Assembly: GCA_044378345.1 (NCBI GenBank)
Contig: JBILXS010000010.1
Location: 29,670 to 93,669, forward strand
Length of the DNA stretch: 64,000 nucleotides
Direction: 5' to 3'
DNA from: Flavobacterium sp.
GTDB lineage: Bacteria; Bacteroidota; Bacteroidia; Flavobacteriales; Flavobacteriaceae
Position numbers and translations under genes: made by a program
Shown here: positions 23,414-25,744 of the stretch, one piece after another
Layout: each line of letters begins with the position of its first letter
Position numbering within the stretch: position 1 is the stretch's first letter
Notes under the pieces: model-generated
What the model was told of the DNA's origin: nothing
What the model saw: the letters and a program-made list of their open reading frames with translations, nothing else
The model's database searches: none

Positions 23414-24229
23414 ATGGAATCTGTAAAAAAATATATACCATCTCATCCGCTTCTTAGACAAAAAATAGCCGCGATTGTTTTTTGGAGGCGATCGGCGGAT
23501 GAAATTACCTCTAGTGTATTTTTACCCAATAATATCTGTGGATTTGGTTTTACTTTGTCGGGAGATTTACTCGTAAAGAATACTTCCGACTTCCAAATAA
23601 TGCCACAATATGGAACTCGAAATACCTTAAATAAACCCAGCGAGATTAAAACTCAAGGCGATTTTTTCAATGTATCTCTTCGACTGGTGATTCCTAATGG
23701 TTTGTCGTTGTTTACGAAAATCCCTATGGATAGAATTTACGAGGAAGATGCCATTTCACTTACCGATATTTTCAAGCCTTTTGAAATAGTACTTCTAGCA
23801 GAAAAACTGGCTGAAGCAAAAACCGATGAGCACCGAGTGGCCTTGCTTGAAAACTTTTTGCTTACCAAAATAAACTGCAGCACTCCTACAGTTTTTGAAT
23901 TCATCATTGAAGCAATTCATCTCGCCAATGGTTTTATTAGCGTTCAACAACTTGCAAAACAGTTTGTCCTTTCTGAACGAACGATTCATCGCTATTTTAA
24001 CAAATATATTGGTGTAAATCCCAACGAATACATTAATCTTATTCGTTTTAGATCGGTCATTACATTAACGCAAAATTCAAGTGAGTCTCTTTTGAATCAT
24101 GCGCTTGATGTTGGATATTATGATCAATCGCATTTTATCAAGCATTTCAAGGAATTTAGTACCGTTACGCCCAAACAGTTTTTTGCAGTAAAAAATTCTA
24201 ATAGTCTGTCCGATTTTTACAATATATGA
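23414..24229 (+). CDS. AraC-family transcriptional regulator
   Basis: C-terminal LSERTIHRYF..YIGV.P and GYYDQSHFIKHFKEF..TP. Confidence 0.9.
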   Translation: MESVKKYIPSHPLLRQKIAAIVFWRRSADEITSSVFLPNNICGFGFTLSGDLLVKNTSDFQIMPQYGTRNTLNKPSEIKTQGDFFNVSLRLVIPNGLSLFTKIPMDRIYEEDAISLTDIFKPFEIVLLAEKLAEAKTDEHRVALLENFLLTKINCSTPTVFEFIIEAIHLANGFISVQQLAKQFVLSERTIHRYFNKYIGVNPNEYINLIRFRSVITLTQNSSESLLNHALDVGYYDQSHFIKHFKEFSTVTPKQFFAVKNSNSLSDFYNI

Positions 24230-24284: not shown

Positions 24285-25618
24285 ATGGTTAAATTTATCT
24301 TTTCATTTACCTTATTTCTTTACTGCATATTCGCTTTCGGACAATACAATTGGTCAAATTTAGATTCCGCTCCATACAATGGCGGCAAGCAAGACGGTAT
24401 CTACTTTATTAATAAAGAAATAGGATGGGTTGTTAATGGTTCCGGTAGAATTTACAAAACAACCGATGGTGGAGAAACATGGATTCAGCAAAGAAATTCT
24501 CCGGGGACCTATTTTAGAAGTGTTGCTTTTGTTAATGAACAAATCGGATTTGCGGGAAATATCGGACCAAATTATTTTCCTGGTGTTACTGATACAAACC
24601 CACTTTACAAAACTATTGATGGCGGAAATAGTTGGGCTTCCGTTACGCCAAATATATCTGGAGTAATTCCAACTGGGATTTGCGCTATTCAAGTGGTTAA
24701 TGCAAACGTAATTTACGCAGCTGGCAGAGTCGGAACTCCAACCGTTATTATGAAAAGTACCGACGGAGGAAATAATTGGGTTGGAACCGATCTTTCAAGT
24801 CAATGCAAAATGATACTTGACATTTATTTCCAAACACCAGAAATCGGATATGTTTTTGCTGGAACCAATGCAAACATTGCAACTTCAAAAGCACGAATTC
24901 TAAGAACTACAGACGGTGGCACCACTTGGACTAATGTGTTTACCTCAACCAGAAACTATGAAATCTTTTGGAAAGCATCCTTTCCTTCAGAAAATGTAGG
25001 ATTTGCAACAATCCAAAGTTATAATAGCGCAACAACGCAACGATTTATTGTAAAAACTTCCGATGGCGGCCAGACTTGGACAGAACTTCCACTTGCAAAT
25101 TCAGGGGTTCGCGAATTTGGAATCGGCTTTATCAACGAAAATGTTGGCTGGGTTGGCGGAGAAAACAACGGCTACGAAACCTTAGATGGTGGCTTATCTT
25201 GGACCAGTAAAGATATTGGACAATACGCCAACAAAATGAGCGTCGTTTCGAATACCGATGGAAGTAAAACTTGCTATGCAGTTGGTTTAAATGTATACAA
25301 AATGGAAACGTCCAATTTATCAACAACAACAACAGTACTTCAAAAAAAAAAAATAACCCTTTGATGTATCCAAATCCAGCAACATCTGGCGGATTGGTAT
25401 CTATTGCTTTAGACGAAATAAAAGCAAAAATCAAAAAAGCAGAACTGATCGGAATTGATGGGAAATCAACGGAAATTTTATTCAACAATTACTTTGAAGG
25501 AACAAGAGAATCTCCATTCATGTTTTACCTACCTTCAGTTGCTGTGGGCGAATATATTGTAAAATTTACAGATGAAAAAAATGCTGTTTATCGCCAAAAG
25601 ATTCTAATAACGAAATAA
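24285..25618 (+). CDS. YCF48/BNR-repeat beta-propeller with T9SS C-terminal domain, split by a frameshift at A12 (25342-25353)
   Basis: Repeated KTTDGG.TW motifs in ORF 24285..25364; CTD MYPNPAT...GEYIVK...KILITK in ORF 25271..25618; A13 or A10 would join the two frames. Confidence 0.8.
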
Positions 25619-25635
25619 AAAACATCATAAAAAAC

Positions 25636-25668
25636 AAAAAACCTCAAACTTTAATTTGAGGTTTTTTT
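25636..25668. terminator. Bidirectional terminator between the T9SS gene and tRNA-Gly
   Basis: aaaaaacctcaaa...tttgaggtttttt. Confidence 0.75.
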
Positions 25669-25671
25669 CTG

Positions 25672-25744
<73 letters not shown>

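Follow-up and report, generated by a model that had tools for sequence, protein, structure and literature searches.

A run of twelve adenines sets a Ycf48-like propeller out of frame with its T9SS sorting domain in a freshwater Flavobacterium, an arrangement probably due to recent replication slippage

We analysed a 64,000-nucleotide stretch of DNA, hereafter the window, in which one gene appears as two overlapping reading frames. The first frame (ORF1, 24285..25364, plus strand) encodes a propeller protein of 359 aa and ends ...TTTTVLQKKKITL, that is QKKKITL followed by TGA. Near its 3' end the window sequence reads twelve consecutive A's (A12; 25342-25353, plus strand, corresponding to G000:C10:55011-55022). 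The run lies inside a disordered linker of Thr and Lys, where relatives whose gene is in frame carry A10. The premature TGA of the zero frame (25362..25364, plus strand) ends 11 nt past the last A. The -1 frame (equivalently +2) is open through the run and encodes MYPNPATSGG...KILITK, an intact T9SS type A C-terminal sorting domain (CTD) of 84 aa plus stop (25364..25618, plus strand) that has no signal peptide of its own. On either side of the run the reading frame is perfect. By frame arithmetic, A10 yields a fusion of 443 aa and A13 one of 444 aa, whereas A11 gives LQKKK and then a stop; the linker junction of the fused frame reads VLQKKK(K)NNPLMYPNPATSGG. The A12 run contains, in the zero frame, the slippery heptamer A_AAA_AAA. 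A preliminary description of the locus had reported the A12, the stop 11 nt further on, the CTD in the -1 frame and the restoration of a protein of ~444 aa by A10 or A13, and our reading agrees with it in every detail. The A12 allele comes from one freshwater Flavobacterium strain.

The premature TGA shares bases with the ATG of the next frame (TGATG). We considered translational coupling across this overlap and rejected it. Intact alleles already have the Met (NNPLMYPNP), which makes the overlap incidental; furthermore, a CTD made on its own lacks a signal peptide and has no route to the T9SS.

A gene for an AraC-family regulator (23414..24229, plus strand) lies directly upstream of ORF1 and is syntenic in orthologous loci. 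Regulator and propeller gene adjoin in the window, in the closest orthologous locus, L108 (~86% nucleotide identity in the upstream region), and in L190, where the neighbour is an AraC-like ORF. This suggests a conserved pair of regulator and target. Downstream, a 14-bp hairpin between an A tract and a T tract (25636..25667, assigned to neither strand) follows the CTD and not ORF1, and could terminate transcription from both directions. It sits between the stop codon of the CTD and a convergent tRNA-Gly(TCC) gene on the opposite strand (25671-25744).

Profile searches placed the seven-bladed BNR beta-propeller of ORF1 among Ycf48-like proteins. ORF1 scored 67 bits against PF14870 (PSII_BNR/YCF48; cut-off 27) and matched the Sortilin-Vps10 and BNR models more weakly, and Ycf48 chains in the PDB matched the propeller at E 1e-10. 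We examined whether the protein could be a true Ycf48/HCF136 photosystem II assembly factor and rejected this, as its score against the equivalog model NF010237 (81.8 bits) falls far under the cut-off of 326. The protein thus has a Ycf48-like fold and is not Ycf48 itself. The AF2 model of an intact allele, P0132, displays a propeller at residues 23-342 (mostly pLDDT >90), a disordered linker at residues 346-356 (pLDDT <50) and a beta-sandwich at residues 360-443 (pLDDT ~80). Foldseek searches with this model returned the cyanobacterial Ycf48 structures 5ojp and 2xbg as best matches (target TM 0.71-0.74), followed by GH74 and other BNR propellers. The N-terminus of ORF1 is hydrophobic (MVKFIFSFTLFLYCIFAFG, then QYNW), and AF2 places a helix at residues 2-16; the segment is a candidate Sec signal peptide.

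The 84-aa piece matched TIGR04183 over the full length of the model, marginally, with 23.8 bits at a cut-off of 23. Against PF18962 it scored 23.1 bits, under the cut-off of 27 (22.3 in the whole-genome scan); precomputed annotation assigns PF18962 to several orthologues. Propeller and CTD stand on separate polypeptides in the window and on the same polypeptide in all orthologues. The genome encodes T9SS machinery, as profile searches recovered SprA (2766 bits) and GldM (446 bits), together with ~100 type A CTDs. Thus, the locus is one T9SS cargo gene with a poly-A run in its flexible linker. An intact propeller paralogue that bears a CTD is found on contig 16 of the same genome. Natural homologues without a CTD exist as well, among them a protein of 357 aa in genome G029 (50% identity). 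The existence of such homologues and of the contig 16 paralogue indicates that truncation may be tolerated. The type without a CTD (~357 aa), which ends just past the last blade, occurs in some genomes, including G029 (locus L009); in G204 (L190, G204:C90), one such copy lies downstream of, and adjoins, an orthologue that bears the CTD.

We searched 5.8 billion proteins for relatives and obtained more than 5000. At least 48 cluster representatives matched at ≥60% identity over their full length, and all are single proteins, of 438-459 aa (~442) apart from one of 520 aa. A few relatives are shorter (290-394 aa) and align with just a portion of the query. Relatives are named as YCF48-related, BNR-like or T9SS type A sorting domain proteins, and those with an organism name are Flavobacterium. 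Of 400 genomes of the genus searched at the DNA level, 3 gave a match, a small sample of tract lengths (A10, A9, A7 and no run). The nearest, L108 (identical to L189), from a Flavobacterium metagenome-assembled genome, has 87% amino acid identity and identical flanks, and carries an in-frame A10 that reads LQKKNNPLM (CTT CAA AAA AAA AAT AAC CCT TTG ATG). L109, at 79% amino acid identity, has A9 (TKKKS). The more distant L111 has A7, and L110, L112/L190 and L191, also more distant, have no run. In one metagenome scan, no homologue exceeded 48% identity. The comparison of orthologues that the preliminary description had proposed thus finds relatives to be single ORFs, some with A10, A9 or A7 in the Lys-rich linker.

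Comparison with P0132 (443 aa) is the most informative. From residue 264 to the frameshift, and again through all residues of the CTD (84/84), this intact allele is identical to the window; the sole difference after residue 264 is QKKNN in place of QKKK... at the tract, and the protein sequence implies an A10. Since the tract of the nearest orthologue is also A10, the window tract is best read as A10 plus 2. Likewise, because P0132 is otherwise identical through the last residue of the CTD, the expansion of the tract appears to be the only lesion and to be very recent. At the DNA level the CTD is identical to that of L108 at 261 of 265 nt, the differences being three synonymous changes and one non-synonymous change.

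The remainder of the gene has a different ancestry. Residues 1 to ~284 differ at one position from the intact alleles P0122/P0126, and the part from residue 264 to the end is of the P0132 type. The DNA compared with L108 is ~78% identical over the 5' 800 nt and 93-99% identical over the 3' 500 nt. As its 5' part follows P0122/P0126 and its 3' part P0132, the window gene is a mosaic that recombination has made from two allele types in co-circulation. A second such recombinant, its breakpoint lying earlier, seems to be P0123. These observations suggest frequent exchange among co-occurring freshwater Flavobacterium populations.

No other homopolymer in the 2.68-Mb genome is as long as the A12. 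Base composition predicts ~3.9 A/T runs of at least 12, and a run of this length is not improbable by itself. Its position inside a gene is another matter. Confident long ORFs, 1.26 Mb in total, contain no sense-strand A run of at least 10, and they use AAA-AAA for consecutive Lys less often than expected (46% vs 61%); thus, a coding A10-A12 is exceptional in this genome. Long ORFs contain 34% of the A6 runs, 12% of the A9 runs and 8% of those with at least ten A's. Selection in this genome clearly acts against long A runs in coding sequence, and Baranov et al. attribute such depletion to transcriptional or replicational slippage (PMC1088944). The A10 in the linker was therefore already an unusual weak point.

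Tract length was read from assemblies. The exact ORF1 (P0121), the CTD frame (P0133) and the strain-specific AraC neighbour (P0135) were each found on 10 contigs, which come from NCBI, JGI/IMG, Logan and ENA and may share read sets; the longest has 123311 nt, compared with 122813 nt here. The matching tallies indicate that records holding the locus of this strain also appear to hold the same split. Among the fully listed clusters there was no intact protein with the N-terminal sequence of the strain, and none of the orthologue sequences that we read had an A13 (QKKKNN). Junctions between ORFs that resemble frameshifts are not commoner at homopolymers (0.3-0.5%) than at random positions (0.26%), and the other coding A10/T10 runs in the genome are in frame. 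This locus is the only one of the ~100 CTDs to be cut from its passenger by a homopolymer.

Several further orphan CTDs were considered as homopolymer frameshifts and rejected. Of three such candidates, C8:102678-102887, C21:56633-56842 and C16:100261-100458, two are short frames (107 and 92 aa) made up of little more than a CTD and the third is decayed by an internal TAA. Three homopolymer sites that resemble frameshifts, C13:38303, C9:41749 and C21:3834, look like ordinary adjacent genes, one of them being the end of a CTD gene. Two contig ends, C22:215045-215188 and C5:3-146, carry the same partial CTD match with the same score; the shared match indicates that the assembly probably breaks there inside a repeated gene that bears a CTD.

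We consider it probable that the locus records a recent replication-slippage mutation in a slippery Lys tract that already existed in the linker, and that the mutation is leaky and in principle revertible. An A10 tract encoding Gln-Lys-Lys-Asn in the disordered linker would have grown to A12 by slippage, and the zero frame would then, after Leu-Gln, end in KKKITL and a stop. The main product would be a complete, Sec-exported propeller without the T9SS tag. One study describes the CTD as the recognition signal of the T9SS (PMC12618676); an untagged propeller would therefore not be passed through this system and would be left in the periplasm, neither secreted nor attached to the surface. A minority of full-length protein may still be made by slippage of RNA polymerase or of the ribosome. 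That some is made is probable, because the CTD is intact and A12 is long enough for slippage or sliding in other bacteria. An A11 in tssM1 of C. rodentium gives 20-25% transcriptional frameshifting, with transcripts that carry 10-15 A's (PMC4256274), and ribosomes slide on A11 in E. coli (PMC4363877). Reversion of the tract might also occur at a raised rate, as in inlA of Listeria. The slipped-strand origin put forward in the preliminary description gains support from the in-frame relatives with A10, A9 and A7 and from the allele that is identical apart from the tract. The step from A10 to A12 counts against simple slippage, as the tract must have slipped either twice or once by two units. We found no sign of selection or programming behind the arrangement. 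Nevertheless, the truncated form could be functional or even favoured, since the allele seems to be stably present and homologues without a CTD exist, and to call it a mere lesion would then be too dismissive.

A reversible switch would make more of the same tract. Slipping between lengths that keep the frame (A10, A13) and lengths that break it (A11, A12) would toggle the propeller between a secreted and a periplasmic form, to the benefit of the population. Several features of the locus fit such a phase-variable gene: the tract is the longest homopolymer of the genome, it falls exactly in the disordered linker so that both states give folded products, the CTD is undamaged, and nature holds both A10 and A12 alleles whose 3' halves are the same apart from the tract. 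Tract lengths on both sides of the frame are found among close relatives (A12 here; A10 in L108/L189 and P0132; A9 in L109). Elsewhere poly(A) tracts do such switching (PMC2831843), and tracts at the 3' end that alter C-termini are known in Helicobacter canadensis (PMC2823697). Against the switch, the assemblies present the same state on every contig with the exact allele of the strain (10/10), and the natural lengths are A10 and A12 only, the single-step A11 and A13 not being seen. The run is absent from the more distant orthologues L110, L112 and L191, and the mismatch repair genes MutS and MutL are present and intact. We also compared tracts across the other T9SS cargo genes, about 95 in number, and found no enrichment of A/T runs (in 92 long cargo ORFs, 31 vs 44 expected for runs of at least 8, and 3 vs 6.3 expected for runs of at least 9). 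As cargo genes are not enriched in tracts, the locus is not a member of a contingency-gene repertoire. Our literature search found no relevant report of phase variation in Flavobacterium or in T9SS cargo. We therefore regard a beneficial switch as unlikely. The ON/OFF switch of the preliminary description keeps the in-frame and out-of-frame alleles on its side and loses ground to the uniform tract, the unenriched cargo and the intact mismatch repair.

Runs of G/C behave somewhat differently in the cargo set. Those of at least 6 are mildly over-represented in cargo ORFs (4 vs 1.25 expected, P ~0.04, post hoc). The longest G/C homopolymer, a G8 on the coding strand at G000:C11:21098-21105, lies in frame ~150 codons into a T9SS cargo ORF of 1802 aa.

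The split might instead be an artefact of sequencing or assembly, the true tract being in frame (A13 or A10) and the gene intact. Every platform has most difficulty with homopolymers of at least 12, this is the longest single run in the assembly, and the frame is perfect on both sides of it. Yet the identical split recurs on 10 contigs from four sources, independent Logan reassemblies included, and the listed clusters hold no intact version of the strain's allele. An error starting from the A10 of the relatives would need an overcall of 2 nt, and the alternative A13 was absent from every orthologue sequence that we read. Furthermore, homopolymer frameshifts are not in excess in this assembly. 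A random assembly error at the tract is thus unlikely, and we give artefact in general only a small chance. The preliminary description had held a sequencing error to be an equally simple explanation; the repeated contigs and the need for either a gain of two or an unseen A13 weaken this claim, which keeps some probability.

The A12 could also be kept as a stochastic partition device, in which most of the propeller would stay in the periplasm without a tag, in the manner of the natural homologues that lack a CTD, and slippage or sliding would send a fixed minority out through the T9SS. We think this improbable; if true, it would be a dosing of a secretion signal by a homopolymer, which has not yet been described for the T9SS.

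Programmed recoding, in which A12 would be a maintained site of transcriptional slippage or -1 frameshifting that fixes the ratio of tag-less to tagged protein as in tssM1, is very improbable, even though A12 is longer than the runs of 9-11 A's on which RNA polymerase slips efficiently in other bacteria (PMC1088944, PMC4256274), A_AAA_AAA stands in the zero frame, one extra A in the mRNA restores the frame and the terminator is placed after the CTD and not after ORF1, since the split is conserved in none of the orthologues seen, all of them single in-frame ORFs, the RNA downstream lacks stimulatory structure (fold of 25330-25460, z = -0.72; 49/200 shuffles fold at least as well) and the split allele differs from an intact one by the tract alone, which argues for a very recent origin. 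Judged by conservation and by RNA structure, the locus does not behave as a programmed site.

Taken as a recent slippage mutation, the locus is a natural example of a flexible linker made vulnerable to mutation by its run of AAA codons for Lys. A change in the tract detaches the secretion signal from its cargo and harms neither domain. Annotators should treat the locus as a single T9SS cargo gene that carries a frameshift, and not as two genes. If both forms were made and useful, the destination of a protein in the Bacteroidota would be tunable by a slippery tract, which the present evidence does not support.

The event is of a kind already known, the uncoupling of a secretion tag by a recent frameshift in a homopolymer. 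In its general build the gene, with its candidate signal peptide, resembles other T9SS type A cargo of Flavobacterium (TIGR04183 / PF18962), in which a Sec signal peptide precedes a passenger, a flexible linker and a C-terminal beta-sandwich tag of ~80 aa; here the tag is out of frame with the passenger. The locus is akin to inlA, tssM1 and the H. canadensis genes because a slippery tract with natural in-frame and out-of-frame alleles is common to them. In Listeria monocytogenes inlA (Orsi, Bowen and Wiedmann 2010, PMC2831843), a coding poly(A) in a surface-protein gene varies between in-frame and out-of-frame lengths among natural strains whose surrounding sequence is the same, slippage causes the frameshift, and the tract can revert at raised frequency. 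In inlA the tract (A6/A7) is located 5' and its frameshift eliminates the protein, whereas A10/A12 lies near the 3' end and removes the sorting domain alone. The tssM1 A11 of Citrobacter rodentium (Gueguen et al. 2014, PMC4256274) shares with our locus a run of 11-12 A's before a premature stop, a C-terminal domain in another frame and the possibility that RNA polymerase slippage restores the full length. Both tssM1 forms were shown to be made and needed, whereas the orthologues of the present gene are in frame and its split layout is therefore not maintained. In Helicobacter canadensis (Snyder et al. 2010, PMC2823697), repeats at the 3' end likewise change the C-terminal part of a protein and do not silence it. 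That genome has 29 repeat-associated coding regions, whereas the propeller gene is a single case, in a genome whose cargo genes are unenriched in tracts and whose mismatch repair genes are intact.
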